Shown piece after piece: positions 8,782-39,647 of a stretch of 64,000 nucleotides of DNA. Source of the stretch: an uncultured Bacteroidota bacterium. GTDB taxonomy: Bacteria > Bacteroidota > Ignavibacteria > UBA10030 > UBA8401. Position numbers and translations under genes: made by a program. The notes under the pieces were generated by a model. That model was not told the DNA's origin. It did not search any database and saw only the letters and a list, made by a program, of their open reading frames with translations. The first letter of the stretch is position 1. Each line of letters starts with the position of its first letter. The stretch spans positions 261,889 to 325,888 of the forward strand of contig CAWGZY010000002.1 of the NCBI GenBank assembly GCA_963827085.1. Direction: 5' to 3'.

Positions 8782-9879
<1,098 letters not shown>

Positions 9880-18952: not shown

Positions 18953-18981
18953 GGTGAAGAATCGTCTGGCTCGTCTTTATG

Positions 18982-19797: not shown

Positions 19798-19803
19798 CTT
19801 CAA

Positions 19804-19861
19804 TTATCAATGATCAATAAACAATTATCATTATATCCTTTTCATTGATCATTGATAATTG
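19804..19861. promoter_or_regulatory. Perfect 18-bp inverted repeat (caattatcaatgatcaat ... attgatcattgataattg) that fills the entire GT4-stop to methyltransferase-start gap
   Basis: Read directly. One arm covers the GT4 stop codon; the other ends 6 nt from the methyltransferase ATG. The flanks carry more caattatca / aattgttca direct repeats. Confidence 0.5.
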
Positions 19862-20979: not shown

Positions 20980-20989
20980 TGCCTGCGCA

Positions 20990-22057: not shown

Positions 22058-22152
22058 GAGTTTAGATAATACCGTTAGCTATGGTTGGCTGTATTCCAGA
22101 AAAGAGACACTTGATTCCTGCGAAGTGCGCGTGTTCCATCTCTCTTCGCACA

Positions 22153-23310: not shown

Positions 23311-23604
23311 ACATCGCCATTTTTAGTAAACGTTCAGTGACTGAACAAAAGTAACACAATTCGCTTAGAAATGCAACGTTCGCAGTAGTTGTCGGTCACC
23401 TGTAACGTTCAACCGGAATCGACGGCGGTAAAATACTTCTTGCCATTCACGTGAAACTCCAGTAAATTTTTCCATTGCTTCCTACCGAGCGACAACGCCG
23501 AACAGCCAGTTCTTTATACCGGTATCGAACACGCGCGGCTTGTATTACCTAAAGCTTCGCGAAGCAAAGCTCTGAACAATCAGCGACTATCGAAAGAGAG
23601 CCAG

Positions 23605-25125: not shown

Positions 25126-25170
25126 GATTTGTTCTCCCTTCGTTGAGGGGGGACTGCAAAAAGCCCGGCG

Positions 25171-25842
25171 TTAAGCTCCTTCTTTGTTGACAATGAACCC
25201 GTAATCCTTGGCGAACTGAACAAGGTTTACGATATCATAAATATCAAGTTTCTTTTTCAAAGCGGTAAAATGTTTGTCGACGGATGATTTGCTCATCGAG
25301 AGCCGTTCGCCGATTTTTTCGGTTTTAAGCCCTTGCGTCAGAAATGAAAGAATTTCCATCTCGAGGTCTGTTAAGGGCTCACGAATATGCGATAGCTTTT
25401 CCAGCTCGGCAGAATGTTTCTTGAGCAATCCCTCAACCATAATACGCGAGACGCTCGGGCTGAAGAATCGCTTCCCTTCCGCGACGATCCGAATAGCGTC
25501 CGCCAACTCATCCTTCCCGACGTTCTTCACAACATAGCCGCCTGCGCCTGACCTAAGAATTTGCGTAACGTACTTTTCATTCTCAAAGCCGCTCAGAATG
25601 AGTATTTTCGTTTTGGGATATTTGAGTTTAATGATCTTGGCGGCCTCAACCCCCGACATTTTCGGCATTTCAAGGTCGAGAATGACGACATCGGGAGTGT
25701 GTTTCTTCACTGCGGCAACCGCTGCTTCTCCGTCGGAAGCCTGGCCGACGACCTCAAAACCGTCGACGGTTGAAAGTAATGCTGATATTCCAAGGCGAAC
25801 AACATCGTGATCGTCCGCCATAACGATGCGAATCTTTTTCAT
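25171..25842 (-). CDS. NarL/FixJ-family response regulator (REC + LuxR-type HTH)
   Basis: IRIVMADDHDVVR...DVVILDLEMP...LTDLEMEILSFLTQGLKTEKIGERL. Confidence 0.85.
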   Translation of the reverse strand: MKKIRIVMADDHDVVRLGISALLSTVDGFEVVGQASDGEAAVAAVKKHTPDVVILDLEMPKMSGVEAAKIIKLKYPKTKILILSGFENEKYVTQILRSGAGGYVVKNVGKDELADAIRIVAEGKRFFSPSVSRIMVEGLLKKHSAELEKLSHIREPLTDLEMEILSFLTQGLKTEKIGERLSMSKSSVDKHFTALKKKLDIYDIVNLVQFAKDYGFIVNKEGA

Positions 25843-25960
25843 AATTCTTCCTTTTGTTTCATATGATAACTCTTTTCTATTAAAAAGTATTTAATAGAGA
25901 AGCCAATGTCAAGGTCGGAATCATTCAAAGTATGCCGCGTCGGATATAGCTGTCAGACAC

Positions 25961-26176
25961 CTTAACTTATGTTACGCAAAAGCCCAATGTTATCGCCACG
26001 AAGTCACAAAGTTACTAAGAAAAACAACCTTTTTTATTAATGCACTTAACAGAATTACGATTTCCTTAAAAGTCTTTGAACTTGGTGCCTTCTGCCAGCG
26101 GCATCTCCCAACGGGATCGCTTCGCGAACGTTGGGAGTGGCAAAGCTTTTAAACTCTGGCAACATCAGTGATTAAA
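25961..26176. repeat. MITE-like repeat family 2, copy H2
   Basis: ttaacttatgttacgcaaaag ... ggcaaagcttttaaactctggcaacatcagtgattaaa. The interior carries a tctcccaacgggatcgcttcgcgaacgttgggag hairpin that is shared with 58385-58565. Confidence 0.7.
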
Positions 26177-26322
26177 TAATCGTCGACGTTAATCGAGAAG
26201 GTGTCCAACAGCTCTCGAAACAGTGCCGCTGTCCCATCCTTTTCGTTGACAAACCAGAAACTGTTTGCTATATTTTTCCACAAATAAACGCCGATAAAAC
26301 AGATCCAACCAGTTGGCATTGA

Positions 26323-27141
26323 GTGAACCGGCCAAAAAAATCTCTCGGACAGAACTTTCTTATCGACCCGAACGTGGCGCGGAAAATTGTCCGGTCGCTG
26401 GAACTCCGGAGATCTGACCGTGTCCTCGAAATCGGCCCCGGAAAAGGCGCATTGACGGCACTTCTGCTGGCTGAATTACCCGCAATCACTGCCGTCGAAA
26501 TCGACGATCAGCTCGCCGCGGAATTACGGGCAACGCACGGAAACGCATTGACTCTTTATCACGACGATGTGCTGAATCTTGACCCGCGCTCCATCGCAAA
26601 AGGACAGAACGGAAAGCTACGCATCGTCGGGAATATCCCTTACAACATTACCAGCCCAATCCTTTTCTGGGCCATCGATTCTTCCGATGTCATCATGGAC
26701 TGCACGTTGATGATTCAGCACGAGGTAGCACGGCGGCTGGTGGCAAAGCCGCGTTCAAAGGAGTACGGAATTCTGTCGGTTTTTGCACAGTATTACTCTG
26801 CACCGGAATTGAAATTCACCGTTGCTCCCGGCTCATTTTATCCTGTACCTGAGGTAACGTCCGCAGTGGTATTGCTGGATTTCCAACGGCCGCATCTTTC
26901 ACGTGCTGCTGATGATGCGATGTTCCGCGCGGTAGTGCGGGGAACGTTCGGCCAGCGGCGCAAAATGCTGCGCAACGGTTTGCGGACGCTTAATGTGCCG
27001 TCAGATTTTTTTCAGAAATCCGCCGTGAATTTCAGCCGACGCCCCGAGGAGTTATCCGTCGAAGATTTTGTCAACCTTTCAAACGAACTATCGTTATTCA
27101 CCGGCGAGCGACCGCCAAAAACATTCCGCACTGCGCCATGA
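26323..27141 (+). CDS. ksgA: 16S rRNA (adenine1518/1519-N6)-dimethyltransferase
   Basis: SLGQNFLIDPNVARKIV...LEIGPGKGALT. Confidence 0.9.
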   Translation: MNRPKKSLGQNFLIDPNVARKIVRSLELRRSDRVLEIGPGKGALTALLLAELPAITAVEIDDQLAAELRATHGNALTLYHDDVLNLDPRSIAKGQNGKLRIVGNIPYNITSPILFWAIDSSDVIMDCTLMIQHEVARRLVAKPRSKEYGILSVFAQYYSAPELKFTVAPGSFYPVPEVTSAVVLLDFQRPHLSRAADDAMFRAVVRGTFGQRRKMLRNGLRTLNVPSDFFQKSAVNFSRRPEELSVEDFVNLSNELSLFTGERPPKTFRTAP

Positions 27142-28103
27142 CTTTCTCCTCCCGCCTTCGCATCACGTTGTTAACCACGGGCGATATAGCGACAATACTA
27201 TTTCTCTCCGTTCTTTCGTTGTTAAATATATTTTTTTTTAGTGTAATCCCGTATTGGTTTGTTCTTGTCGGATGCAACGTTCTTTTCATTTGCCTCATCC
27301 TCTTTTTCGCTCAGAAAGCAAAGGAGACCCGCTTCCGTCTCGTCGGGCATATCCGCGACTGGTATCCGGTCCCGATGATTTTTTTCGTTTTTAAAGAAAC
27401 ATATCTCATGGTCCATCCGATTCATCCTCAGGACTATGACTGGCTGCTCATCAACATCGACAGATGGATCTTCGGCGGCGACCCAACACGCTGGCTCTCA
27501 ACCTTTGCGCATCCATTCGTGACTGAAATCCTTCAGATCAGTTATGCAAGCTATTACCTCATTTTGTTGAGCGTGTTCTTCGAGTTGAGCATCGAGAGGC
27601 GCCACACGGAATATTTTTTGGGATCGTTTCTGGTTATTTATGGATTCTATCTGTCGTATATCGGCTATTTTTTGCTGCCGGCCGTCGGTCCTCGATTTAC
27701 GCTGTACGATTTTAATTCTTTGGACAGTTCATTGCCAGGAATCTGGGCGACGAATGCACTGCGCGATTTTGTGAACGCGGGTGAATCGATACCGAGAAAC
27801 GTACCGAACGCGATCGACTTCGCACAGCGTGATGCATTCCCGAGCGGACACACGCAGCTCACTCTCACCATTCTTTACATTGCATTTACGAATAACATTA
27901 AAAGCCGCTGGGTGTTGCTGGTCGCCGGTTCGCTGCTCATTATTTCAACCGTCTACCTTCGTTACCATTACGCCATAGATGTGATTGCAGGAGTTATCTT
28001 TTTCCTTTTTACAGTTTGGAGCGGGAAAAAAATCGATATGGGTTGGAGAAAGTTCAAAAAAAAATTGCGGACTGCCGAGGATGGAATTATACAGACGAAG
28101 TAA
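27138..28103 (+). CDS. PAP2-superfamily membrane phosphatase/transferase
   Basis: PSGHT and SRxxxxxHxxxD-like YLRYHYAIDV motifs, multiple TM helices, ATGA overlap with ksgA. Confidence 0.7.
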   Translation: MTFSSRLRITLLTTGDIATILFLSVLSLLNIFFFSVIPYWFVLVGCNVLFICLILFFAQKAKETRFRLVGHIRDWYPVPMIFFVFKETYLMVHPIHPQDYDWLLINIDRWIFGGDPTRWLSTFAHPFVTEILQISYASYYLILLSVFFELSIERRHTEYFLGSFLVIYGFYLSYIGYFLLPAVGPRFTLYDFNSLDSSLPGIWATNALRDFVNAGESIPRNVPNAIDFAQRDAFPSGHTQLTLTILYIAFTNNIKSRWVLLVAGSLLIISTVYLRYHYAIDVIAGVIFFLFTVWSGKKIDMGWRKFKKKLRTAEDGIIQTK

Positions 28104-28151
28104 ATACGCCTTGCCTTCCAGGGAGAATTTTCGTACTTTTGTGATGCTAAA

Positions 28152-28179
28152 AAGCCTGTCGTAACACGACGGGCTTTTT
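28152..28179 (+). terminator. Terminator hairpin after the PAP2 gene
   Basis: aagcctgtcg taaca cgacgggctt + ttt. Confidence 0.5.
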
Positions 28180-28187
28180 GAATCTAT

Positions 28188-28262
28188 GGTGGCCATAGTT
28201 CAGTTGGTTAGAACGCTAGGTTGTGGCCCTAGAGGTCGTGGGTTCAAGTCCCACTGGCCACC
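28188..28262 (+). tRNA. tRNA-His (GUG) with an encoded G-1
   Basis: Cloverleaf: acceptor GTGGCCA/TGGCCAC, D-arm GTTC..GAAC, anticodon stem CTAGG/CCTAG with loop TTGTGGC, T-arm GTGGG TTCAAGT CCCAC, discriminator C. Confidence 0.85.
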
Positions 28263-28396
28263 CGAGAGTAATTAAAAATTAATAATTAGGAATTATGAAT
28301 TGAAAGTTAAAAGTAGTTGAATTGAGCAGGATCCAATGACCGCGAGGTGTCGGTCCAATTTTTGATTTTTAATTCATAACTACTAATTGCTTTATC

Positions 28397-28469
28397 GTCC
28401 CCATCGTCTAGAGGCCTAGGACCGGAGCTTTTCAAGCTTCTAACACGAGTTCGAATCTCGTTGGGGACA
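28397..28469 (+). tRNA. tRNA-Glu (UUC)
   Basis: GTCCCCATCGTCTAGAGGCCTAGGAC C GGAGC TTTTCAA GCTTC ... ACGAG TTCGAAT CTCGT TGGGGAC A. Closely resembles bacterial tRNA-Glu. Confidence 0.9.
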
Positions 28470-28477
28470 CACAATCG

Positions 28478-28513
28478 CCACTTAATTCGAAAGTTTTAAG
28501 TGGTTTTGTTTTT
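28478..28513 (+). terminator. Terminator after tRNA-Glu (ccacttaa ... ttaagtgg + TTTTGTTTTT)
   Basis: 8-bp stem, 10-nt loop, T-run. Confidence 0.65.
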
Positions 28514-28692
28514 TCATCCCACACCACATTTTGTATAAAAATTAGCAACACTTTATACAAAAGTGATCTGCACCCCAAAAAGTATACACGTAGTTAAGCC
28601 ACAGTTTGCTTGAGCAGTTGATGTTCAAATTGCTCGGACGATAGGTATCCGAGCGCGGAATGCTTGGCATGTGCAAACGGATGGTTTCTATA

Positions 28693-29232
28693 TTATTCCT
28701 GATTATGCACCTTGGCCGAAGCCAGCCGGACAAACACTGGCACTATCATCCTATGGAGGAGAAATGCTATCGGGGGGCCGATGAGAGCCCATGCAACGAT
28801 CGCGTGCAGTGTTGCCCACCACAACGAACGGATTGCGCCAAGAGTATCTGTGTGCACCATCGCTAGTATTTGAAAAGCAGAGAGAGAGATGGGCGAGGCA
28901 CCGGAAAGAACCTCACCGAGTCGTATAAGCACCGGAAGAAGAAGCAACTGGAGCGGAAACGCAAAATAATTCACGAGTTGGACGGCGGGGAGGTTCAGGT
29001 CGAAGGCAATGCTCGCGGCTGTGCACAGGATGGTCGTTGATCCAATCACGGGAAATGTGCTGATCGTAGCCCCGGACACAACACTCAACGCCAGCTTCTC
29101 CGGAGAAAGTCCCTGAGTCAGAAGGGAGAGAAGCGGGCGGAGAAGCGTTCGCTGAAGGAAAAGTTTTATCTGCTGTATGACGAGCATTAGTTCATCGGAA
29201 AGGGGATGTTTGAAATTATGGACGAAGCTCAC
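28693..29232 (-). CDS. Small polytopic membrane protein (DUF2062-like)
   Basis: ...LTQGLSPEKLALSVVSGATISTFPVIGSTTILCTAASIAFDLNLPAVQLVNYFAFPLQ... Transcribed divergently from the CarH-like promoter. Confidence 0.5.
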   Translation of the reverse strand: MSFVHNFKHPLSDELMLVIQQIKLFLQRTLLRPLLSLLTQGLSPEKLALSVVSGATISTFPVIGSTTILCTAASIAFDLNLPAVQLVNYFAFPLQLLLLPVLIRLGEVLSGASPISLSAFQILAMVHTDTLGAIRSLWWATLHAIVAWALIGPPIAFLLHRMIVPVFVRLASAKVHNQE

Positions 29233-29346
29233 AATCTACGTGATTGAACATCAAGTTCTTTCCGCTGGTTCCGCAATGGTGGTCGAAGAGGCAGCGACCG
29301 TTCTCACCTGTCCGGCGGGAATCTGAGGGGGGTATGCAAAAAAAAC

Positions 29347-29398
29347 TTGACAAATCGAAATTTCTACATTATCTTAAACCGTGCATATCGTGCATATC
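29347..29398 (+). promoter_or_regulatory. Promoter of the CarH-like operon: TTGACA, 17 bp, TATCTT, immediately followed by the tandem direct repeat CGTGCATAT CGTGCATAT (candidate operator)
   Basis: ttgaca at 29347-29352, tatctt at 29370-29375, repeats at 29380-29397. Sits inside the N-terminal extension of the track ORF, so the true start is the GTG at 29419. Confidence 0.5.
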
Positions 29399-29418
29399 AT
29401 CTAAAACAGGTATTTGCG

Positions 29419-30312
29419 GTGAAAGCGACCTACTCAACGGCGGATCTCGCCAAGCTCTTCGACGTCAACGAATCGACCGTTAAACGGTGGTCGGACGCTG
29501 GTGATTTGCAGTGTGTTAAGACTCGGGGGGGACACCGGCGGTTTTCCGTGGGATCGGTCATGCAGTTCGTGCATCAACACAAACTCTCTGCACCCCTTCT
29601 TTCCGCTGAGGGCATCAAGGACGAAAATCTCCGAGTCCATGTAATCGCAGGCAATATTCAGAAGCTAGTACCGGAATTCAAAAAGGAAATACTCGCAGGA
29701 AATGTGAATGGGGCACTAAATGTTGTCCGAACTGCCTTCGCCGCGAAGCCAAGTTTTCTTGAAATCTGTTCAACGGTTGTCTTCCCTGCCCTCAGGGAAA
29801 TCGGCGAAGAATGGCATGCGAAAACAATTTCCATCGACCGGGAACACGTCGCCACCAACACCGTAAAGGAAGCGTTGACCCTCTTCCAGTCGGATATCCA
29901 CCACAAAGAACCGAACGGATTGAAAGCCCTGTGTGCCTGTATTGAAGGAGATTTGCACGATGTTGCAATCCGTTGCGTAGGATATTACCTCGAGACTGAA
30001 GGCTGGCACGTTACGTTTCTCGGGCAATCGTCTCCGTCGAAGTCGGTCGTCAATGCGATCAATGCAAACAAGCTGGACCTTATTGCACTCAGCGCAACGA
30101 TCGTAGAGAATGAACGAAAATTTCTTCATGCGATGAATAACGACATCCAACCTGCAGCCCGTCGCACGCGAGCAATGCTGGCTGTCGGCGGACATAATAT
30201 CAGGGCACGATTTGGCAAACGGATTAAGGCCGATCATCTTTGCGATTCAATCGCTGAGTTTGAATTAATCGCCCGCCCGGACAACTACAACCATCGAAAG
30301 AATGGCCGATGA
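29419..30312 (+). CDS. CarH/LitR-type light-sensing transcription regulator: MerR-type HTH fused to an adenosylcobalamin-binding domain
   Basis: HTH reads (M)KATYSTADLAKLFDVNESTVKRWSDAGDLQCVKTRGGHRRFS. Four-helix-bundle signature EEWHAKTISIDREH (W-x9-E-H). B12-binding core GDLHDVAIRCVGYYLETEGWHVTFLG...AVGG. Confidence 0.8.
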   Translation: MKATYSTADLAKLFDVNESTVKRWSDAGDLQCVKTRGGHRRFSVGSVMQFVHQHKLSAPLLSAEGIKDENLRVHVIAGNIQKLVPEFKKEILAGNVNGALNVVRTAFAAKPSFLEICSTVVFPALREIGEEWHAKTISIDREHVATNTVKEALTLFQSDIHHKEPNGLKALCACIEGDLHDVAIRCVGYYLETEGWHVTFLGQSSPSKSVVNAINANKLDLIALSATIVENERKFLHAMNNDIQPAARRTRAMLAVGGHNIRARFGKRIKADHLCDSIAEFELIARPDNYNHRKNGR

Positions 30313-30341
30313 AACAATCGGGCAGTCTCTATGAGGATTAG

Positions 30342-31366
30342 GTGATTACAGCTTTGCTCGAACATAATGTCCTCCCCGATTGGCTGATCCGGATCGGTAT
30401 TCGGAGGCTGCTGCATCGGCGGCTAAAGGAAGAGGCCAAAGCCGACTGCGAACTGCAGCAACAGCACTTCATGAATCTCGTCGAGGAATTGAGAAAGAGT
30501 CCGATCGCGATCCACACTGACGATGCGAACGAACAGCATTATGAGCTTCCCACAGAATTTTTCAAACTCATCCTCGGGAAGCACATGAAGTACAGTTCGG
30601 GGTACTGGAACGACGGCGTTAACAATTTGGACCGATCAGAAGCTGACATGCTTGCGCTCACCTGCCAACGAGCGCAGATCACCGACGGGATGAGCATTCT
30701 TGAATTAGGGTGCGGATGGGGATCCTTGTCGTTGTTTATGGCGGAGCAATTTCCAAAGGCGCATATTACGGCCGTCTCAAACTCGCGCACGCAGAAATCT
30801 TTTATCGACGGCGAATCTGCCCGGCGCGGCCTGAAGAACGTCGCTGTTATCACTGCGGACATCAACAACTTCCAACCGATGAACAATTCGACCGGGTCAT
30901 ATCGGTGGAAATGTTCGAGCACATGAGAAATTATGAAAGGTTGATGGCAAAGGTGGCCGGATTCTTACATCCCGCGGGGAAACTCTTCGTCCACATTTTC
31001 ACTCATAAAGATTTTGCCTATACATTTGAGGTCAGGGATAACTCCGACTGGATGTCACAATATTTCTTCACCGGCGGAATCATGCCCAGTGATCATTTGC
31101 TCCTCTATTTCTCGAAAAACCTGGCGGTCGAAGAACATTGGAGAGTCTCGGGCATCCACTACCACAAAACGAGTGAAGCCTGGCTTGCCAACATGGATGC
31201 CCACAAAGAAAAGATCTTCCCGATTCTTGCTCAAACCTATGGCAACGGCCAGGCTACAAAATGGTGGGTATCCTGGAGAGTATTTTTTATGTCATGTGCT
31301 GAATTGTGGGGTTTCAACGGCGGCGAAGAATGGTTTGTGAGTCACTACTTTTTCACGAAAAGGTAA
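30342..31366 (+). CDS. Cyclopropane-fatty-acyl-phospholipid-synthase-like SAM methyltransferase, interrupted by a 1-nt frameshift near 30896
   Basis: Frame 1 (30342-30926) reads ...LELGCGWGSLSLFMAEQFPKAHITAV...ITADINNFQP. Frame 2 continues DEQFDRVISVEMFEHM...GFLHPAGKLFVH, which is the canonical CMAS motif. GTG start with a gagga RBS. Confidence 0.75.
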
Positions 31367-31371
31367 CCTGC

Positions 31372-32681
31372 ATGAGTAAGAAACATTCAGCGAGGACAAG
31401 CATCGGAATTGTCGGCACCGGCATCGCGGGGATGGGTTGCGCATACTTTTTGCATACGACCCACGACATCACAATCTACGAGCAAAATAATTACATCGGG
31501 GGGCACACAAATACGGTGACGGTGGACGAGGACGGCACGGAGATACCTATCGATACCGGCTTCATGGTCTACAATGAGGTTACCTATCCGAACCTTGTAA
31601 GACTGTTTCATGAGTTGAATGTTGAAACAAAGAACACTTCCATGTCGTTCAGCGTTCAGCATCTGCCATCGGGTCTTGAGTATTCCGGATCAAGTCTGAA
31701 CCATTTATTCGCGCAACGCAAGAATATCCTCAGTCCGCGTTTTATCCGGATGATATGGCAGATCAACCGTTTCAATAACGAGTGTCCTGAAGTTCTGGCA
31801 GATAAGAAATTCGCATCCTATACACTGAAGAGTATGTGCGGGAACGAAGATTCGGCGACGATGTTTTGAAAAAATACCTTGTACCCATGAGCTCTGCGGT
31901 CTGGTCAACACCTCCGGACCAGATGCTCCGGTTTCCGGCTGTCACGCTCGTGCGGTTCTTTAAGAATCACGGGTTTCTTGGCCTGGACACGCAACACCAA
32001 TGGCGCACCGTTGTTAACGGCACAAGAAGTTACCGGGATAAGCTCATCGCTCCGTTTGCAAAAAGAATCCTTACCGGCAACCCGGTCGTGAATGTCATGC
32101 GCAAGAAAAGGAAGGTCGAACTGCGGCTCAAAGATGGCGGGAGAGCGCTGCACGATCGCGTAATCCTTGCTTGCCATGCGGACGAGGCTCTGAACATGCT
32201 GGACAAGCCCACGACGCTCGAAAAGCGATTGCTCGGAGAATTCAAATACCAGCACAACAGGGCCACACTTCACACTGATGCGAGTCTTATGCCGAAGACA
32301 AAGCTCGCGTGGTCATCATGGAATTACCGCCTCGACACCAATGCCGACGGAACCTCAAAATCTTCCACGATCTACTACATGAACAGTCTTCAGAACGTGT
32401 CGAAAAAGAGGGATTATTTTATTTCCATCGATGATCCCGGGACTGTTAATCCCGGTTCGATATTAAAAGAAATTGATTACACGCATCCGGTCTTTTCCCT
32501 GGGAGCGATCACGGCGCAGAGAGAGCTGTCCCTTATCAATAAGGAAGGTCCGTTATATTTCTGCGGCAGTTATTTCAAATATGGGTTTCATGAAGATGCG
32601 TTCACTTCAGCCCTCGAACTTTGCAGGTCATTGATGGACGTGCCGATTTGGCCACCCCGGGAGGAGTTGCGTCAGCCATGA
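31372..32681 (+). CDS. NAD/FAD-binding amine-oxidase-like oxidoreductase (fatty-acid desaturase-like, UfaD-type), interrupted by a 1-nt frameshift near 31840
   Basis: IGIVGTGIAGMGCAYFL (dinucleotide-binding fold) ...; second frame ERRFGDDVLKKYLVPMSSAVWSTP... One G is missing in cggg(g)aacg. ATGA overlap with the next gene. Confidence 0.75.
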
Positions 32682-33451
32682 ATTCACGCATGTTCGACTG
32701 CACTGTGATGCATCACCGTCTTGAACCTCTCAGGCACAGATTTGTGTACAAAGTTTTTATGTTCTATCTCGATCTCGATGAGTTGGACGCCATCGATGCC
32801 GGCCTTACGTTCTTCAGCAGGAATCGGTTTAATCTCTTTACCCTCCGCGACCGGGACCATTTGACCTTTCATAAGTCGTCCATCAAGGAGAATATCAGGG
32901 AATACTTGAAATCCGCGGGGATCGATATCGGCAGCGGCAAGATCTATCTACTGACCAATCTCCGCACGGCGGGATACGTTTTCAATCCCGTATCGTTCTA
33001 CTTTTGCTTCGATGAAAAGGGCGATCCTGTGTGTGCCATTCCCGAAGTTGGAAACACATTCAGCGAGCTAAAACCATATCTGCTCACCCGCGATAGCTTT
33101 CGGAAGGGTACGTTCCGGGAGCGGATAGTGAAATACTTTTACGTGTCGCCATTTTTTGATCTCGACACAACATTCGATTTTCAGCTCCGGGTACCCGGCG
33201 AGACACTCCGTATCCAGATCGATGATTACAAGGAAGGGAGAAAAGCATTTCTCAGCTCTCTTGTCGGAAGAGAAAAGCCCCTGACCGATTTCAATCTTCT
33301 CCGTTCCTTTTTCCGCATTCCCTTTGTTACGCTGAAGGTGATTGCGCTCATCCACATTCAAGCAGGATTGCTCTATCTGAAGAAGCTCCCTTATCACAAA
33401 AAATCTGAAAACCCGGACCTACAAAAGGAAGTTTACATATGGAACAAGTGA
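32678..33451 (+). CDS. DUF1365-family protein
   Basis: MNSRMFDCTVMHHRLEPLRHRFVYKVFMFYLDLDEL... is typical of DUF1365, always found beside CFA-synthase-like genes. Confidence 0.75.
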   Translation: MNSRMFDCTVMHHRLEPLRHRFVYKVFMFYLDLDELDAIDAGLTFFSRNRFNLFTLRDRDHLTFHKSSIKENIREYLKSAGIDIGSGKIYLLTNLRTAGYVFNPVSFYFCFDEKGDPVCAIPEVGNTFSELKPYLLTRDSFRKGTFRERIVKYFYVSPFFDLDTTFDFQLRVPGETLRIQIDDYKEGRKAFLSSLVGREKPLTDFNLLRSFFRIPFVTLKVIALIHIQAGLLYLKKLPYHKKSENPDLQKEVYIWNK

Positions 33452-34701
33452 CACGACAGCCAATGGCGCTCCCCCGCTTGCTCGGCAGGCTTACCTCTCT
33501 CTACCAACGGATTGTTTTGGGCCTTCTGTCAGAAATGACGCAGGGCTTCATGAGGATTGTGCTGCCGGACGGCAAGGTTTTCGAGTTTGGCGACAAGAAT
33601 TCTCCGGACAAAGCAACGATCCGCATCATTTGCGAATCCTTTTTCCGGAAGTGTGTTCTCTACGGCGATGTCGGATTCGGAGAAGCATATGTGGACGGAG
33701 ACTGGGACACTGACAGCGTCGCAGCCGTTATCAAGTGGTTTTTGCTCAATGTCGAAAATGCTCCCACCGTATCGGGTTCCAGGAAAAAATTCATTCCGGG
33801 GAATTTCCTCAAGGTGCTTAACAGGATCTATCACAAACTCCGGGCAAACAGCATCCGGGGAAGCCAGAAGAACATTGCCGAGCACTACAACCTGAGCAAC
33901 GATTTCTTCAAACTATTTCTGGATAAAACGATGACGTACTCCAGCGCGTTCTTTTCGAGAGGTGACGAGACGCTGGAAAGTGCCCAGGAAGAAAAATATG
34001 ACCGGCTTTGCCGCAAATTAAGGCTTCAGCCTTCCGACCGTCTCCTCGAGATTGGCAGCGGATGGGGTGCTTTCGCACTCTATGCAGCCAGGAATTATGG
34101 CTGCAGAATTACGACAACGACAATTTCGGAAGAGCAGTACACGTATGCTAAGGAGCTGTTTCAGCGCGAGCATCTCGACAAGCGGATCGAAATCAAGCTT
34201 GCTGATTATCGGACGCTCAATGGATCTTACGACAAGATCGTCTCTATCGAGATGCTCGAAGCAGTGGGACACGAGTACCTCGAAACGTATTTTGCGAAAT
34301 GCCACGAGCTTCTGAAGAAGAACGGTATTCTTGCGTTTCAGGTCATTACCTGCGCTGATTCACGATACGAGTCGTTGCGAAAGAGCATCGATTGGATTCA
34401 AAAACACATTTTCCCCGGCTCTCTGCTTCCGTCGATCGGTGTTCTGAACAAGGCCATCAACAGAACTGGGGACCTGGTGATGCAGCATATGGAGGAGTTC
34501 GGCCTTAGCTACGCACGAACACTGGCACAATGGAGAGAAAATTTCAATAGCCGGGTCGGTCAGGTTCGCCTGCTGGGGTTTGATGAGAGATTCATTCGTA
34601 CGTGGAACTATTATCTCTCCTATTGCGAAAGTGCGTTTGCGATGCGCAACATCAGCGTTGTGCAGATGGTCTATACAAGACCAAATAACCTTTCGCTCTA
34701 A
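33439..34701 (+). CDS. Cyclopropane-fatty-acyl-phospholipid synthase family methyltransferase (intact, 420 aa)
   Basis: LEIGSGWGAFALYAA...DYRTLNGSYDKIVSIEMLEAVGHEY. Confidence 0.85.
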   Translation: MEQVTRQPMALPRLLGRLTSLYQRIVLGLLSEMTQGFMRIVLPDGKVFEFGDKNSPDKATIRIICESFFRKCVLYGDVGFGEAYVDGDWDTDSVAAVIKWFLLNVENAPTVSGSRKKFIPGNFLKVLNRIYHKLRANSIRGSQKNIAEHYNLSNDFFKLFLDKTMTYSSAFFSRGDETLESAQEEKYDRLCRKLRLQPSDRLLEIGSGWGAFALYAARNYGCRITTTTISEEQYTYAKELFQREHLDKRIEIKLADYRTLNGSYDKIVSIEMLEAVGHEYLETYFAKCHELLKKNGILAFQVITCADSRYESLRKSIDWIQKHIFPGSLLPSIGVLNKAINRTGDLVMQHMEEFGLSYARTLAQWRENFNSRVGQVRLLGFDERFIRTWNYYLSYCESAFAMRNISVVQMVYTRPNNLSL

Positions 34702-34736
34702 GACTGATCACCTACAACTTAGAACACCATCATACA

Positions 34737-35360
34737 ATGAAATATTTTGTCTCTTCATTATTTACGTTACTTTTTGCAGGAGCAACATGCATGGCCACCA
34801 AAGAACCAGCATACAAGGTGATCAAGGCGGATGGAGATTTCGAAATCCGGGAATACGTATCGTACTGTGTCGCAGAAACCTTTACAGACACCTCCGACTT
34901 CGATGAAGCATCGAACCAAGCATTCAGAAAGCTGTTCCGGTATATCTCGGGAGACAACCGTTCAAAGACAGAAATTGAGATGACGGCCCCCGTAACGACA
35001 TCGAAGTCTGAGAAGATAGAAATGACAGCGCCGGTGACATCGACAAAAACGGCCGGCGGGTATCTAACTGCCTTTGTTATGCCGGCGCAATTATCCCTCG
35101 GTACGACGCCTATACCCAATGATTCATCCATACAGATCCGAGAAATTCCTTCGCGCAGAGTTGCAGTAATAAAGTTTTCAGGCCGTTGGACTTCTTCGTC
35201 GATGGACGAACATGGAGGGCGACTGATGGAGTGGATCTCAAAAAACGGACTCGTCCCGACGGGTGAACCTGTTATTGCCCGATATGATCCTCCGTTTATG
35301 CCATGGTTTCTACGGAGAAATGAGATACAGATTCAGATAAGACCGTCGCAAGAACCGTAG
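34737..35360 (+). CDS. SOUL/HBP heme-binding family protein with a signal peptide. Contains the tandem peptide repeat EIEMTAPVT(T/S).
   Basis: Signal MKYFVSSLFTLLFAGATC, then ...YxVIK..DFEIREY... and a C-terminal RYDPPFMPWFLRRNEIQIQI. Confidence 0.65.
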   Translation: MKYFVSSLFTLLFAGATCMATKEPAYKVIKADGDFEIREYVSYCVAETFTDTSDFDEASNQAFRKLFRYISGDNRSKTEIEMTAPVTTSKSEKIEMTAPVTSTKTAGGYLTAFVMPAQLSLGTTPIPNDSSIQIREIPSRRVAVIKFSGRWTSSSMDEHGGRLMEWISKNGLVPTGEPVIARYDPPFMPWFLRRNEIQIQIRPSQEP

Positions 35361-35446
35361 TTGTTACCCGGAAACGATCTCATGGCGGCGCTCGTTGAGC
35401 AACGAGCCGTATTGCATTCAACTTACACTTAACCACACGGTGACTT

Positions 35447-35845
35447 ATGTTCATAAAACTCTATCTCATCACGCTCCCTGTGTTTTTTGCAATTGATATG
35501 ATTTGGCTTGGGGTTGTCGCCAAGAACTTCTATCGCGAACAAATTGGCTTCTTGATGACACCGGATATTAACTGGCCCGCAGCCATCATCTTCTATCTGC
35601 TTTTCATTGCCGGATTAATTCTCTTTGTTATTTCTCCGGCCGTGGAAAAACGGATGTGGCTTGATGCGCTGCTGATGGGTGCGCTGTTTGGTCTCATAAC
35701 ATACGCCACTTACGACCTCACAAACCTCGCAACAGTGAAGAACTGGCCGGTACTGGTCACAATAGTGGATTTAGCGTGGGGAGCAACATTGTCAGCGTCG
35801 GTCTCACTGATAAGCTATCTCATCGTCACAAAATTTGTATTATGA
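35447..35845 (+). CDS. DUF2177-family small membrane protein
   Basis: Four TM segments, 132 aa, ATGA overlap with the next gene. Confidence 0.55.
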
Positions 35846-36606
35846 ACTACTACCTTATCCTAGCTTCAGCGCTCTTTTCGTACATGACATTGTGCTTCAT
35901 TGTTTCTCTCATAAAAAAAAGAAATGATGTCGCCGACATCGCATGGGGGCTTGGCTTTGTTCTGCTTGCTTGGCTGGCTGAGTATTTTTCCAGATTTGCG
36001 GTTCGATCGTTGCTTGCCAATCTGCTGGTTACTCTTTGGGGATGCCGGCTGGCGTGGCATATATACCGTCGCAATCGGAATAAGGCTGAAGATTATCGTT
36101 ATCAGGCATGGCGAAAGGAATGGAAAAACTTTGCGCTTCGAAGCTTTCTCCAAGTCTATATGTTGCAGGGCATTCTCCTGTACGTCACCGCCCTTCCTGT
36201 GCTTTTCATCAATCACGCTCCGGCATCGCCGTTGGGATGGACGGATCTTGTCGGAATGGTGATTTGGTTGATCGGCTTTTCTTTTGAAAGCATCGGCGAC
36301 CGTCAACTGCGAGAATTCATCCGGCATCCGGCTAACAAAGGAAGAATCATGGATAAAGGCCTTTGGCGGTACAGCCGTCATCCCAACTATTTTGGTGAGG
36401 TCACTCAATGGTGGGGAATATTCATCGTTGCCCGATCACTGCCCGAGAGCTGGTGGACTGTCATTGGCCCGCTGACCATAACCGTCCTCATACTTTTTGT
36501 TTCTGGGGTCCCGCTTCTCGAGAAAAAGTACGTGGGGAGAGATGATTTTGAGGAGTATAAGAACCGTACGAGTATCTTCTTTCCACTGCCGCCAAAAGCG
36601 TCATGA
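35842..36606 (+). CDS. DUF1295-family membrane protein (steroid-5alpha-reductase / ICMT-like fold)
   Basis: ...[14 protein letters not shown]... motif, multi-TM. Confidence 0.7.
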
Positions 36607-36857
36607 AACCGCTTGAGGACCACGTCTTTTATTAATGGTTCAAAATCGTCTACATAGAGATTCTAGGATTTTTTCGAGTCAGAGTTAATAAGGAGTTCTT
36701 CAAAACAAATTAGCTTCGCTCACTTGATGTTTCCATCTTTAATTACTACGTTTTCCCGTGTTAGTTTTTGGAACGGAATTGCTAACAGACTGCTAACACG
36801 GTTCCCGAAAATCACCACGATTTTTGGCGAATCCAGACGAAATTCGATACCGAACCA

Positions 36858-36992
36858 GCTTTTCAAGCTTCTAACACGAGTTTGAATCTCGTTGGGGACA
36901 CACGATAACCACTTAGTTCGAGAGTTCTAAGTGGTTTTGTTTTTCTATCCCACGCCACATTTTGTATAAAATTGGGGACAATTTATACAAAA
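36858..36992 (+). repeat. Diverged duplicate (~87% identity) of the 3' half of tRNA-Glu plus its terminator and downstream ttgtataaa..tttatacaa palindrome. The original is at 28426-28562.
   Basis: agcttttcaagcttctaacacgagtttgaatctcgttggggacac ... ccacttagttcgagagttctaagtgg + ttttgttttt. The stem carries a compensatory a->g / t->c pair. Confidence 0.75.
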
Positions 36993-37199
36993 ATTATACT
37001 CCTCGTTATACACTCTCCTCAATGAACTTTTCTCAGCAACATATTCACTTACTGTAGGGGTGAATTGTATTTTGCCGGGAGGAGCGTTGAATGTAAAGGC
37101 AATAATGACTACTTTTGATTTACGATCAAAAACTGCAGTGCACTTGCATGAAAGACCTCACCTTTACACCTATTTATCAACCCGTCGGAGAATATTGAT

Positions 37200-38045
37200 A
37201 TGAATCTTCAGAACAAGACCGCCGTTGTCACCGGCGGAGCAATGGGAATCGGACTGGCGACTGCCCGCCGTCTTGTGGCAGAGGGATGCATTGTGACGCT
37301 CTGGGATCTAAACGAAAAAGCGCTTAACGAAGCGCAGAACGAACTCGCTTCCCAAGGGACCGCGTATGCCCATCGGTGCGATGTCACCGATAAGAACCTC
37401 GTCTATCAGCTCGCGAAGAAAGCCGAAGAGGAAATGGGAAGGGTCGACATCCTTATCAACAATGCCGGGTACGTCTCCGGCGGGGATCTCCTCGACCGCC
37501 CGGATGATGAATGGGAGCGTACGATCGACGTGAACCTGACCGCTCTCATCTATACGACGCGTGCGTTTCTGCCGGGAATGTACAAACGAGACTGCGGTCA
37601 TGTCGTCAACATCTCTTCTGCCGCCGGCACCATCGGGGTACCCGGACTTGCCGTCTACGCTGCGACAAAATGGGGCGTATGGGGATTGACCGAGTCGCTC
37701 CGGATGGAGGCCTACAACAACAAGAAATACGGAGTGAAGTTTTCGACAATCCATCCGAGCTACATCGCGAGGGGAATGTTCGAAGGGGCGCGGCTCGGTT
37801 TTCCGGGGCGGCTGATTGTTCCGTTGGTGAAAAGCCACGACGTGATTGCCGGTGCGATTGTCGACTCTGCTTTGAAGAAAGGGCGTTATTCCCCCAAGCG
37901 GCCGAGGACAGTCAACATGAACATCCGATTTCGTGCGCTCATGCCGGACAGCTGGTTTCAGCACTTCCTCATACTGATGGGCGTCGGCGGAAGCATGAAG
38001 TCGTGGTATGGACGAACCAAAGAAGAAACCGCGGTGAAGCCATGA
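37200..38045 (+). CDS. Short-chain dehydrogenase/reductase (SDR)
   Basis: TAVVTGGAMGIGLA...NNAG...YAATK. Confidence 0.85.
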   Translation: MNLQNKTAVVTGGAMGIGLATARRLVAEGCIVTLWDLNEKALNEAQNELASQGTAYAHRCDVTDKNLVYQLAKKAEEEMGRVDILINNAGYVSGGDLLDRPDDEWERTIDVNLTALIYTTRAFLPGMYKRDCGHVVNISSAAGTIGVPGLAVYAATKWGVWGLTESLRMEAYNNKKYGVKFSTIHPSYIARGMFEGARLGFPGRLIVPLVKSHDVIAGAIVDSALKKGRYSPKRPRTVNMNIRFRALMPDSWFQHFLILMGVGGSMKSWYGRTKEETAVKP

Positions 38046-39625
38046 CGACAACATCGACATCGATCAGGGAAAGTGTTCCGTCCGTGAATCCCGCGACAGG
38101 GGAAACCATCGGGATGACGGAAGTGAATACCGTTGCCGATCTCAACGATGCAGTCGCTGGGGCCCGGAAGGTCCAGCCTGCCTGGGAGGCGGCCGGTTAT
38201 AGAGAACGTCGACGGCATCTCCTCCTCGTTCGCGACTATATCGTGACGAACGCGGAATTGCTCGCAGACATTATCTCCCGCGACACCGGAAAGACGAAAA
38301 TCGATGCGCTCAGTACCGAAGTGATGTCGGCAGCGATGGCGGTCAGCTACTATGCCGCGCACGCAGAAAAGATACTAAGGCGTAAGCGACTGAGCGGCGG
38401 GAGCCTTCTCACCTTCAACAAGCGCTCGTACGTCGACCGGGTGCCAATGGGTGTCGTGGGCATTATCAGTCCGTGGAATTATCCGTTCGCGATTCCAATC
38501 CACGAAGTTGCGATGGCGCTCATTACAGGAAACGCGGTCATTCTGAAGGTTGCCTCTCAGACACTCCTAGTCGGAAAGGCAATCCAGGATGCCGTGGCGG
38601 CGGGGAATTTTCCCCCCGGCATTTTCACGCTCATAAATTTGCCCGGGACGGTCGCGGGGAAAGGATTCCTCGAGTCGGACATCAACAAACTTTTCTTCAC
38701 CGGCTCCGTTGCCGTCGGCAAGCAGCTGATGGCGAAAGCGGCCGAGCGGCTGATTCCCGTCTCGCTCGAGCTTGGCGGAAACGATGCAATGATCGTCTGC
38801 CGGGATGCGAACGTGCACCGCGCTGTGAACGGAGCGCTTTGGGCAGGAATATCGAACGCCGGACAATCGTGCGCCGCAGTGGAGAGAATTTATGTCGAAG
38901 ATCCTCTCTATGAAGCGTTCGTCGCTCTTCTCAAGGAAAAGATGCATGGGCTGAAACAAGGACCGGATCAGAACTGTGACTTCGATGTGGGGGCGATGAC
39001 AACGAAAGAACAGATGAAGAAAGTGCAGGATCAGCTCCGCGACGCCAGATCGAAGGGGGGAAAAATATTTGAGAACCCTCCCTCCAACGGTGCGAATCTT
39101 ACGGGCATGTTCATCTCGCCGACAATAGTCGAAGACGCCACCGACGACATGATGCTGATGAAAGAGGAAATCTTCGGTCCGGTCCTTGGTGTCGCCAGGG
39201 TGAAGGACGTGGATGAAGCAGTACCAAAGGCAAATGCCTCAAGACTGGGGCTGACGGCTTCTGTCTGGTCCCGCAACAAGAAAAAGGCCCGCAGCATCGC
39301 CGCCCGGCTCGAAGTAGGATCGGTGATGATCAACGACCACCTCATGAGCCACGGACTTGCCGAGACACCGTGGGGCGGCTTCAAGGAATCCGGGATCGGC
39401 CGCACGCACGGTTATCTCGGACTGGAAGAGATGACGCAGCCCCGTGTCGTCATCGATGACATCCTGCCGGGCATGCAGAAAAATATGTGGTGGTATCCGC
39501 ACAACAGAAGGGTCTTCGATGGACTCCTTGGCGGACTACACGTCCTCTATTCAAAGAGTCTGACGAAGCGTCTGGCCGGCGTCTTTAAGCTTGTTCCGGT
39601 CTTCTTACGGAGTTTTCAAAAATAG
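38042..39625 (+). CDS. Aldehyde dehydrogenase family protein (ATG at 38042, ATGA-coupled to the SDR). The 704-aa track ORF beginning at 37511 is an artefact of an open upstream frame.
   Basis: ...ELGGNDAMIV...GQSCAAVERIYV... catalytic Glu and Cys motifs. Confidence 0.9.
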   Translation: MTTTSTSIRESVPSVNPATGETIGMTEVNTVADLNDAVAGARKVQPAWEAAGYRERRRHLLLVRDYIVTNAELLADIISRDTGKTKIDALSTEVMSAAMAVSYYAAHAEKILRRKRLSGGSLLTFNKRSYVDRVPMGVVGIISPWNYPFAIPIHEVAMALITGNAVILKVASQTLLVGKAIQDAVAAGNFPPGIFTLINLPGTVAGKGFLESDINKLFFTGSVAVGKQLMAKAAERLIPVSLELGGNDAMIVCRDANVHRAVNGALWAGISNAGQSCAAVERIYVEDPLYEAFVALLKEKMHGLKQGPDQNCDFDVGAMTTKEQMKKVQDQLRDARSKGGKIFENPPSNGANLTGMFISPTIVEDATDDMMLMKEEIFGPVLGVARVKDVDEAVPKANASRLGLTASVWSRNKKKARSIAARLEVGSVMINDHLMSHGLAETPWGGFKESGIGRTHGYLGLEEMTQPRVVIDDILPGMQKNMWWYPHNRRVFDGLLGGLHVLYSKSLTKRLAGVFKLVPVFLRSFQK

Positions 39626-39647
39626 AGGGAACTTCAGCCAGCGCATA

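Follow-up and report, generated by a model that had tools for sequence, protein, structure and literature searches.

A probable integrase-less cargo island with a predicted CarH-controlled lipid operon at the tRNA-Glu gene of an uncultured Bacteroidota species

The window analysed here, a stretch of 64,000 nucleotides from an uncultured Bacteroidota bacterium, contains a tRNA-Glu gene followed by an 8.4 kb segment (28472-36902) that holds a DUF2062 gene and a predicted CarH-controlled lipid operon (Table 1). The order of the left flank, consisting of a response regulator, KsgA, PAP2, tRNA-His, and tRNA-Glu, is conserved in the near-identical contigs L001 and L026 and in the more distant relatives L011 and L016. 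Pfam searches assign the operon a CarH-like regulator, a CMAS, an amine oxidase, DUF1365, a second CMAS, SOUL, DUF2177, and DUF1295, with the frameshifting 1-bp deletions in the first two enzyme genes called against L012, a stand-alone copy of the island from a sister sample. By analogy with furan fatty acid synthesis, the DUF1365 protein may correspond to UfaO and the FAD enzyme to UfaD (PMC7380195), and the operon is probably of the furan/methylated fatty acid type. The Pfam searches, which covered all major ORFs in 28693-36606, returned no recombinase or integrase and no integration or transfer genes. This agrees with an earlier sequence-only reading of the locus, which had placed the genes from DUF2062 through DUF1295 inside the bracketed segment and the SDR and ALDH genes outside it, and had seen no integrase. 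The same reading had proposed comparing the GC content of the segment with that of its surroundings, and this gave no signal, with 0.488 for the island and 0.486 for the window. The GC outlier is the SDR-ALDH pair, not the island. This pair lies outside the CarH operon in every relative compared, and the block recurs at 83% identity in an unrelated context (L019-L021).

Table 1. Positions of features at the tRNA-Glu locus, numbered from the first nucleotide of the window
Feature	Position	Strand	Basis or remark
tRNA-His(GUG)	28189..28263	+	ARAGORN; member of conserved left flank
tRNA-Glu(UUC), intact; putative integration target, attL side	28397..28470	+	ARAGORN
Copy A core: tRNA-Glu 3' half, anticodon stem to tRNA end plus 'AC'	28426..28472	+	46/47 identical to 36857-36903
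CGTTGGGGACACA, 13-bp sequence flanking the S element in sister strains	28459..28471	+	Second copy 36890-36902; L001/L005 junctions
Terminator A: hairpin CCACTTAA...TTAAGTGG plus T-run	28478..28516	+	Stems 28478-28485 / 28496-28503; L016-like variant
Palindrome A: TTGTATAAA N13 TTTATACAA	28531..28561	+	Weak similarity to B up to 28589
Left spacer, island-specific	28590..28692	.	Native tRNA-Glu downstream homology ends; 74-nt native flank absent (four-way alignment)
DUF2062 membrane protein gene, first of conserved module M	28693..29232	-	Pfam; with operon in L014, L015, L016, L027
CarH-like regulator (MerR HTH + B12-binding) and lipid operon	29347..36606	+	Pfam
CMAS-like methyltransferase	30342-31366	+	Pfam; split by 1-bp deletion
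Amine-oxidase-like FAD enzyme	31306-32681	+	Pfam; split by 1-bp deletion
Spacer after DUF1295	36607..36756	.	Common only to L014 and L015 module copies
Arm, conserved non-coding right end	36757..36856	+	Six-sequence alignment; JGI contigs L022-L025
Copy B core: displaced tRNA-Glu 3' half, putative attR side	36857..36903	+	T-loop C56->T at 36883
Terminator B: hairpin CCACTTAG...CTAAGTGG plus T-run	36909..36945	+	Stems 36909-36916 / 36927-36934
Palindrome B and native 74-nt flank (36993-37066)	36962..37081	+	Flank follows tRNA-Glu in outgroups L011, L016
SDR + ALDH pair, separate 2.55 kb module outside island	37082..39631	+	Pfam; GC 0.553

The segment is bracketed by two copies of the tRNA-Glu 3' half, each with a terminator hairpin and a palindrome, which lie on the same strand 8431 bp apart. 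In a BLAST comparison of the window with itself, 28426-28562 (copy A) and 36857-36992 (copy B) are identical at 122 of 137 positions (89%) with one 1-nt gap (E = 1.8e-46), and no third copy is present. A pattern search of the window found no other tRNA-Glu end fragments above chance. The duplication reported from sequence alone is therefore real by pairwise alignment, and its extent holds apart from a copy B start that was one base off (36858) and an identity of 87% that was slightly low. Within the 47-nt core the only mismatch is in the T loop, with C at 28452 and T at 36883 (TTCGAAT to TTTGAAT). The tail, comprising the terminator and palindrome, is more diverged (~75-82% identical between A and B), and weak similarity runs on to a common TATACAC at 28589 and 37013. 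Copy B draws no ARAGORN call and scores 17.9 bits with the Rfam tRNA model, below the gathering score of 29, and on these predictions it is not a tRNA gene. As at the boundaries of tRNA-type islands, the tRNA gene is complete on one side of the locus while a direct repeat of its 3' portion marks the other side, and the attL/attR-like geometry noticed earlier, with an insertion junction at the tRNA gene, is backed by relatives and by near-identical strains.

Both terminator hairpins are predicted to be stable (-13.8 kcal/mol, z -4.6 for A; -15.9 kcal/mol, z -5.0 for B), contain GC pairs, and lead into a U-run (TTTTGTTTTT), as in Rho-independent terminators; a simple terminator scanner misses both because the loop exceeds its 8-nt limit. 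Since both versions fold as stable hairpins with T-runs, the A-T versus G-C double change between their stems, which had been described as compensatory, is real.

The origin of the two copies can be read from L011, an outgroup with 72-76% nucleotide identity in the flanking genes and the one contig returned by a scan of a genome collection for the terminator hairpin pattern, and from L016, with ~80%. In both, tRNA-Glu, terminator, palindrome, and 74-nt flank are contiguous, and in the window this native flank is kept by copy B only and is missing after copy A. Because the outgroup tRNA-Glu runs straight into a terminator, palindrome, and flank of the copy B type, copy B is the displaced native 3' end. 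The comparison with relatives suggested in the sequence-only reading thus comes out in favor of an insertion, as the sequence after copy B directly follows an intact tRNA-Glu in L011 and L016. Across 118 nt downstream of the tRNA, six parsimony-informative sites group copy A with L016 and copy B with L011, and none groups A with B, which excludes duplication in situ: copy A is foreign to this locus, or at least not a sister of copy B. Local duplication of tRNA-Glu 3' half and terminator, segmental or tandem and with later divergence, which was offered earlier as the alternative, would account for two direct copies on one strand 8.4 kb apart. It can hardly be the explanation given the 6:0:0 site pattern, the 99.8-100% identity of flanks with and without the island against a difference of about 20-25% between the A and B tails, and a junction of arm and half that is common to other loci. 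The two terminators are instead orthologous variants of different lineages (A with L016, B with L011), the covariation predates the insertion, and the idea that compensation after duplication kept the hairpin functional while the tRNA part decayed is not supported. The predicted terminator A now serves tRNA-Glu, and terminator B is the native tRNA-Glu terminator of the species.

Strains almost identical to the window hold other sequences at the same site. The left flank is 99.8-100% identical in L001 and L002 (from 18919 or later) and in L026 (from 17142), and these contigs and L003 follow the window as far as 28471/28472 and differ from it beyond that point. The first three carry, instead of the island, an element with a large serine recombinase (S), and L003 carries a third, different element (T) after tRNA-Glu. 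In the L001/L005 contig, S spans ~27 kb between the break points 28471 and 36890 and is bounded by CGTTGGGGACACA; the right flank (L005), on the same 1.5 Mb contig as the left break, resumes at 36890 inside copy B and is 99.96% identical over 11 kb. S encodes a 594-aa Resolvase/Recombinase/Zn-ribbon protein, Fic, UvrD, GmrSD, Nmad2, a deaminase, and PrimPol/VapE. Taking S out in silico joins tRNA-Glu directly to terminator B, which lies directly 3' of the S attR in L005-L009. A literally empty tRNA-Glu site was not found in the same species, where other occupants were seen instead, and the presence of other mobile elements at this site in near-identical strains again supports insertion. These alignments indicate that tRNA-Glu is an integration hotspot filled alternatively by S, T, or the island within the species.

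The island also assembles as stand-alone contigs in sister samples (L013, equal to window 28471-36892; L012, equal to 28591-36799), as is expected of a variable segment, and L013 could stem from a circle or from a graph bubble. An old, now immobile acquisition, as first proposed, is not supported for an island whose presence varies among strains with 99.8-100% identical flanks, that forms separate contigs in sister samples, and whose right end recurs elsewhere, also with other cargo. It is highly improbable that a strain-variable contig was mis-assembled into the tRNA-Glu locus and that the bracketing exists in no single cell. The sources are metagenomes with coexisting variants, L013 ends in sequence common to all variants, and the window has two frameshifts relative to L012. 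However, the stand-alone contig has tRNA-Glu-end sequence at either end and must therefore join a tRNA-Glu or a half on each side, for which the arrangement in the window is the simple solution, and L015 and L023 independently show the same kind of arrangement. Only the assembly that contains the window shows the junctions from tRNA to terminator A and from half to terminator B.

At the right end of the island, the arm contains GTGTTAG, two copies of TGCTAACA, and the inverted repeats CCGAAAATC/GATTTTTGG and CGAAT/ATTCG. In a six-sequence alignment it always adjoins a tRNA-Glu half, unrelated cargo included, and arm and half together measure ~146 nt. This unit also closes the operon in L014 and L015, two further contexts in which the module copies are at 87% nucleotide identity, spacer, arm, and tRNA half are common to all, and homology to the window ends precisely where the tRNA 3' end is reached. 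In L015 a remnant of the S left end comes after the half, and the module is preceded by GGTTGGGGACACA and a remnant of T. In the JGI metagenome contig L023, two copies of arm and half lie on either side of 10 kb of unrelated signalling genes, among which there is no recombinase. S comes after arm and half in L015 (as the remnant), in L022, and at the second copy of L023, a tandem pattern of relatives only and not of the window. Searches of IMG/VR, GenBank phages, and PLSDB plasmids gave no match to the arm, and Rfam contained nothing for it. These three collections and the JGI scan likewise yielded no full-length relative that carries this arm, and neither a recombinase recognising it nor an attP or excised circle was detected. 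A GTCCCC motif 49 nt upstream matches the tRNA 5' acceptor strand and had prompted the idea of a tRNA-like RNA. This idea was set aside, as the copies gather uncompensated changes in the T stem, T loop, and anticodon loop and the fold z-score is only -2.45.

In L016 and L017, KsgA, PAP2, tRNA-His, tRNA-Glu, DUF2062, and the CarH operon stand in the same order as in the window, and the L016 module is ~81% identical (78-83% nt) to that of the window, about equal to the host flanks at ~80%. Given this equal divergence, the module could be a long-standing occupant of this locus that the S- and T-bearing strains have lost. It is possible, if rather doubtful, that the structure described here has another history and the island has been at tRNA-Glu since before the split from the L016 lineage, in which case the window would show the ancestral state and not a recent gain. 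Loss might have proceeded, for example, by integration of S into the right-hand half (as in L015) followed by recombination between tRNA and half that deleted the island; integration of S into copies of arm and half is indeed seen in L015, L022, and L023, and the 47-nt near-identical core could support such a deletion. Against this, in L016 the 74-nt native flank separates the neighboring tRNA-Glu from the module, which has neither arm nor right-hand half, so the junctions are not those of the same event. In addition, two steps would be required for each S- or T-bearing strain, and the occurrence of module, arm, and half in unrelated contexts (L014, L015) would be left unexplained.

We consider it likely that the segment is a CIME-like cargo island without an integrase that entered a tRNA-Glu hotspot through a Campbell-type crossover. 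Its putative circular form would have read arm, tRNA-Glu 3' half, terminator A, palindrome A, and DUF2062 through DUF1295 back to the arm, and a single reciprocal exchange between the tRNA 3' half and the homologous stretch on the circle would have rebuilt a complete tRNA-Glu, now using the island's terminator A. The resident 3' half and the native sequence behind it (terminator B, palindrome B, and the 74-nt flank) would thereby have been displaced 8431 bp downstream, where terminator B probably ends the operon transcript. Movement would proceed only via a co-resident recombinase specific for tRNA-Glu or via homologous recombination across the repeat. The alignments show the repeat structure, the native character of copy B, the foreign or non-sister character of copy A, the polymorphism in the population, and the recurrence of arm and half, and we infer the circle, the enzyme, the direction and date of these events, and the role of the terminator.

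Besides the missing recombinase, attP, and excised circle, the equal divergence of module and flanks in L016, and the junctions seen in a single assembly, two further observations run counter to this island model. The absence of GC deviation gives no sign of foreign origin, and the repeat (~137-160 nt) extends 90-120 nt past the tRNA and is much longer than typical att cores, which may point to homologous recombination or capture of chromosomal DNA and not to classical integrase chemistry. In that case the operon would have come from a related bacterium on a circularised or transformed fragment, next to ~160 nt of the donor's own tRNA-Glu 3' half and downstream region, and the fragment would have recombined with the resident tRNA-Glu via RecA, with the arm as a passenger remnant of an older element. 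Consistent with this are the unusual length of the repeat, its inclusion of an L016-type orthologous terminator and palindrome, and the absence of an integrase from the island. Moreover, an arm-bearing L016-like donor would have arm, half, terminator A, palindrome A, and module contiguous, an order that would explain the proposed circle. We nevertheless regard this route as unlikely, as the near-perfect tract is only 47 nt, which is short for RecA-dependent recombination, and the unit of arm and half, conserved across unrelated cargo and always bounded by the very 3' end of the tRNA, resembles the substrate of a recombinase. It is tempting to go beyond the island model and speculate, though we think it improbable, that arm and half form the portable attachment module of a family of recombinase-less cassettes within these Bacteroidota, stacked at tRNA-Glu and shuffled in trans by co-resident recombinases. 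The CarH lipid operon and the 10 kb signalling cassette of L023 would be examples, and such a tRNA-anchored array would be reminiscent of integrons but unrelated to them.

The locus is a further example of an already known class of tRNA-associated islands, and it documents the tRNA-Glu gene of an uncultured Bacteroidota species as a hotspot for at least three elements among otherwise 99.8-100% identical strains. The exchangeable inserts include a complete photoreceptor-controlled lipid-modification operon, so that protection against photo-oxidative stress would be a variable trait at the strain level. If the cassette family exists, a light-regulated membrane-lipid pathway would itself be a strain-variable, exchangeable trait. 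Arm and half together also provide a handle for finding more integrase-less cargo islands and their helper recombinase in metagenomes. For annotation, the locus cautions that a seemingly compensatory change between paralogous hairpins can be two orthologous versions joined by an insertion.

Genomic islands that integrate at the 3' part of tRNA and tmRNA genes, with the tRNA 3' end directly repeated on both sides, are a known class. The window island resembles them in pairing an intact tRNA with a partial 3' copy at the opposite end, in an element that would supply the replacement 3' half, in its variable occupancy among strains, and in its cargo of an accessory metabolic or stress operon. It is unlike them in having no integrase, no GC deviation, and a repeat that continues for ~90-120 nt beyond the tRNA and takes in an orthologous terminator and palindrome. 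As in CIMEs, defined together with the accretion model in PMC5704250, integration and transfer genes are absent, and the repeat and conserved arm may represent retained attL- and attR-like ends; a full-length ICE or IME carrying this arm, from which a CIME would derive by decay, was not found. The neighboring autonomous element S uses a serine recombinase with a 13-bp repeat at a different sub-site, and it would be only a putative helper. CIMEs form tandem arrays with ICEs and IMEs that integrate into their attR, as in Streptococcus thermophilus relatives of ICESt1/3, a pattern matched only in the relatives L015, L022, and L023. The ssrA-specific islands of Dehalococcoides, of which 16 of 31 have an integration module (PMC3146451), are alike in their large number and diverse cargo at one small-RNA target gene, in being a major source of differences between strains, and in the phylogenetic separability of integration module and cargo, with about half lacking the module. 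The window island differs in target gene and phylum, in its putatively photoprotective lipid cargo, and in a conserved end that is a non-coding arm and not a gene module. The Rhodobacter sphaeroides RSP1091-1087 (UfaD-UfaO) furan fatty acid operon belongs to a gene set that is linked to protection against singlet oxygen through methylated and furan fatty acids (PMC7380195). It resembles the operon described here at the level of Pfam families only (FAD amine-oxidase-like enzyme, DUF1365, CMAS, DUF1295), and control is predicted to be by a CarH-type B12 photoreceptor here, as opposed to sigmaE/ChrR there.

The 3′ half of tRNA-Glu and the sequence following it occur twice in the window, as the sequence-only reading had claimed. 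Positions 28426-28562 (copy A, beside the intact tRNA gene) are repeated once, in direct orientation, at 36857-36992 (copy B), with 122/137 identical positions and one 1-nt gap (E 1.8e-46, BLAST within the window), and no third similar copy was found elsewhere in the window by the same search. The repeat begins at the tRNA-Glu anticodon stem and takes in a terminator hairpin, its T-run and a TTGTATAAA/TTTATACAA palindrome. Its 47-nt core (28426-28472 = 36857-36903) has a T-loop C->T change at 36883 as its sole mismatch, the tail beyond is ~75-82% identical, and weak similarity extends to a common TATACAC at 28589 and 37013. Terminators A and B both fold stably (-13.8 and -15.9 kcal/mol, z about -5) with a T-run after each, and the eighth pair of the stem differs genuinely between them, A-T versus G-C. 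Copy B is not called as a tRNA gene by ARAGORN, and its Rfam score of 17.9 bits lies below the gathering score of 29. A terminator-like hairpin (GACCGCGAGGTGTCGGTC plus T-run) also lies at 28338-28365 between the two tRNAs, which may therefore be separate transcription units.

Features of the island and of the tRNA-Glu site (window coordinates unless a locus is named)
Feature	Position	Details	Basis
tRNA-His(GUG)	28189-28263		ARAGORN
tRNA-Glu(UUC)	28397-28470	with tRNA-His, the only tRNA genes called in the window	ARAGORN
DUF2062	28693-29232	minus strand	Pfam
CarH-type regulator	between copies	MerR/HTH_17 and two B12-binding domains	
First CMAS-like methyltransferase	30342-31366	between copies	
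Amine-oxidase-like FAD enzyme	31306-32681	between copies	
DUF1365, second CMAS, SOUL, DUF2177, DUF1295	last ends 36606	between copies	
Arm	equivalent 36757-36856	conserved, joined directly to the tRNA-Glu 3′ half	alignment of arm copies
SDR	37200-38045	after copy B	
ALDH	ends 39625	after SDR	
Serine-recombinase element, recombinase	L001:11295-13079	minus strand	
Serine-recombinase element, tRNA-Glu	L001:11260-11333		
Serine-recombinase element, right end	L005:~9560-9703		

Near-identical strains carry other sequences at this site. The sequence on either side of the island is matched by a 1.5 Mb ENA contig. Identity is 100% over 18919-28471 at its left-flank locus (L001), up to a divergence point at the 3′ end of tRNA-Glu, and 99.96% from 36890 on, starting within copy B, at its right-flank locus (L005). 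These points lie ~27 kb apart there, versus 8.4 kb in the window. The insert, flanked by the 13-bp repeat CGTTGGGGACACA, encodes a 594-aa large serine recombinase that abuts the tRNA, and defence-type cargo (Fic, UvrD, GmrSD, Nmad2, deaminase-ATPase, a LexA-like repressor and PrimPol/VapE). The called recombinase ORF overlaps tRNA-Glu by 39 nt on the opposite strand, so that integration and excision would give it different C-terminal codons. At the right junction the insert runs into terminator B, palindrome B and SDR; minus the insert, tRNA-Glu therefore directly abuts B-type sequence. Another strain (L026, flank 99.8% identical) has a serine-recombinase element that is related to this one but differs in its distal cargo, and a third (L003) has yet another sequence 3′ of tRNA-Glu, with a 180-aa minus-strand ORF (L003:2550-3328) lacking a Pfam hit. 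Four more contigs (L006-L009) have a right junction of the L005 type. In sister samples the island assembles as its own contig, equivalent to 28471-36892 in L013 and 28591-36799 in L012, which is the behaviour of a strain-variable segment. Such variation among near-identical strains does not support the earlier description of the segment as old and immobile.

More distant relatives indicate which copy retains the resident context. One of them (L011, labelled 'Bacteroidetes bacterium DeMMO3_9'), 72-76% identical in nucleotides to the window in the response regulator, KsgA and PAP2 genes, has the order tRNA-His, tRNA-Glu, terminator, palindrome and then 74 nt 90% identical to 36993-37066, which is the flank after copy B, not copy A. 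In L016 and L017 (~80% nucleotide identity in the flanks) the tRNA, terminator, palindrome and 74-nt flank are also contiguous; next come DUF2062 and the CarH operon, and DUF1295 has no tRNA fragment behind it. Terminator, palindrome and flank thus constitute the native tRNA-Glu downstream region of the clade. That region is whole only at copy B; homology at copy A is gone after TATACAC. The sequence-only reading had proposed that an empty site would have tRNA-Glu directly followed by the SDR/ALDH region, and this holds in the sister contig after subtraction of its insert. In L011 the B-type flank is followed by other genes. Those genes (L011:412-938, minus strand) include overlapping 85-aa and 89-aa ORFs that, judged by eye, look like a RelB/DinJ-YafQ toxin-antitoxin module. 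The sequence downstream of tRNA-Glu differs in every lineage examined.

The alternative of a segmental duplication in situ is ruled out by site patterns. Across 118 aligned columns downstream of the tRNA, 6/6 parsimony-informative sites group copy A with L016 and copy B with L011, and none groups A with B; the corresponding identities are 82% (A-L016), 86.5% (B-L011) and 75% (A-B). The two copies are not sisters, and neither derives from the other in place. The A-T/G-C change, previously taken as compensation that maintained the hairpin after duplication, is a difference between orthologous terminators that predates their meeting in the window.

The right end of the island recurs with other cargo. 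Two module copies at 87% nucleotide identity (L014, contig_136938, and L015, contig_99914) derive from the L001 metagenome; they sit in unrelated contexts, with no tRNA gene within the fetched loci. Their alignment with the window runs from just past the DUF2062 stop through DUF1295, a 250-nt spacer and the tRNA-Glu half, and the 3′ end of the tRNA is exactly where homology stops. After the half, L015 carries ~110 nt of homology to the serine-recombinase element's left end, and its module is preceded by GGTTGGGGACACA and a decayed remnant of the L003-type element (L015:4985-5160); the locus is a mosaic of a tandem array. A search with a spacer-derived pattern returned four JGI contigs that share only ~125-160 nt with the window, equivalent to 36741/36778-36902. 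The arm contains GTGTTAG, CCCGAAAATCACNCCGATTTTTGGCGAATCCA, two direct TGCTAACA repeats and the inverted repeats CCGAAAATC/GATTTTTGG and CGAAT/ATTCG. One JGI contig (L023) has two units of arm plus half, 10.2 kb apart; the genes between them (histidine-kinase, cNMP/STAS, SpoIIE-phosphatase and Ser/Thr-kinase) include no recombinase. The serine-recombinase element follows the second of these units and also the unit in L022. A more distant module copy (L027, 76% nucleotide identity) has neither tRNA nor arm. The arm motif GGTTCCCG (36801-36808, ~49 nt upstream of the half) is identical or near-identical to the tRNA-Glu 5′ acceptor strand GTCCCCA, with an equivalent GTCCCC(G/A) in L014, L015, L022 and L023. 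Arm and half may have originated as one complete tRNA-Glu gene in which other sequence took the place of the D-arm region; a functional tRNA-like RNA seems unlikely because the copies show uncompensated changes.

The absence of an integrase gene was borne out, with no recombinase among the island genes between the copies (Pfam). The operon resembles in Pfam content a Rhodobacter gene set tied to methylated/furan fatty acid synthesis and singlet-oxygen protection, in which UfaD is the FAD enzyme and UfaO is DUF1365 (PMC7380195), and by analogy it may serve the same type of pathway and protection. The first CMAS and amine-oxidase genes are two ORFs apiece in the window, which has 1-bp deletions near 30872 and 31826, neither within a homopolymer, relative to the short-read contig L012, which is 99.93% identical and carries both genes intact. 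These frameshifts may reflect either faulty assembly or a genuine inactivation of this strain's lipid pathway. The ENA assemblies contain many frameshifts, which is relevant to this reading: a TPR-CHAT gene intact in the window (41553-44807, 1084 aa) is in 807- and 240-aa pieces in the sister long contig (L005:14355-17610), where ALDH is also called shorter.

The suggested GC comparison revealed no shift for the island (0.488 versus 0.486 for the window); the sole compositional outlier is the SDR+ALDH pair (0.553). The pair forms a sharply bounded 2.55-kb block (37082-39631) with an 83% identical copy in an unrelated context without any tRNA (L019-L021), and it follows the lipid operon in none of the relatives examined. 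The pair is therefore not an operon member; it resembles an independent two-gene module that spreads horizontally and sits directly after the native tRNA-Glu flank. Other repeats in the window include several families of short intergenic repeats (5174-5283/25962-26071, 92%, with 8828-8869; 1209-1313/5076-5177/51180-51228; 26100-26144/58500-58544), also found in sister-strain contigs; one copy lies in the conserved left flank, a short way upstream of KsgA. A conserved 36-nt motif occurs six times at 61234-63153 (spacing ~363-387 nt), probably marking repeated sensor (PAS-like) domains in one long gene.

The proposal that the repeats are attL/attR scars is supported by the B-type junction in the sister strain and by the flank shared with L011 and L016. 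In the simplest account, a circular form of the island carrying arm, half, terminator A, palindrome A and module would have recombined once with the resident tRNA-Glu within the 47-nt core. The crossover would have rebuilt tRNA-Glu, now with terminator A, and moved the native 3′ half, along with terminator B, palindrome B and the flank, to the opposite end of the island, where the first strong terminator beyond DUF1295 is terminator B. The agent could be either a recombinase supplied by a helper or RecA using the unusually long homology. That long repeat would plausibly stem from chromosomal DNA captured beside an arm-bearing element in a genome of the L016 type, in which arm, half, terminator A, palindrome A and module would have formed one contiguous stretch. 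A possible alternative to recent gain is that the island is older at the locus and was lost in strains now bearing other elements; in L016 the module lies beside tRNA-Glu with a divergence about equal to that of the host flanks.

With att-like ends and no integration genes, the island would fit the CIME definition, and L015, L022 and L023 hold arrays of the 'accretion' type that has been described for these elements (PMC5704250). Genomic islands that lack an integrase and occupy a tRNA integration hotspot are a known kind of structure, well documented here; mildly unusual are the long orthologous repeat and the conserved arm plus half common to unrelated cargo. The ssrA islands of Dehalococcoides (PMC3146451) offer a close parallel to this tRNA-Glu island.
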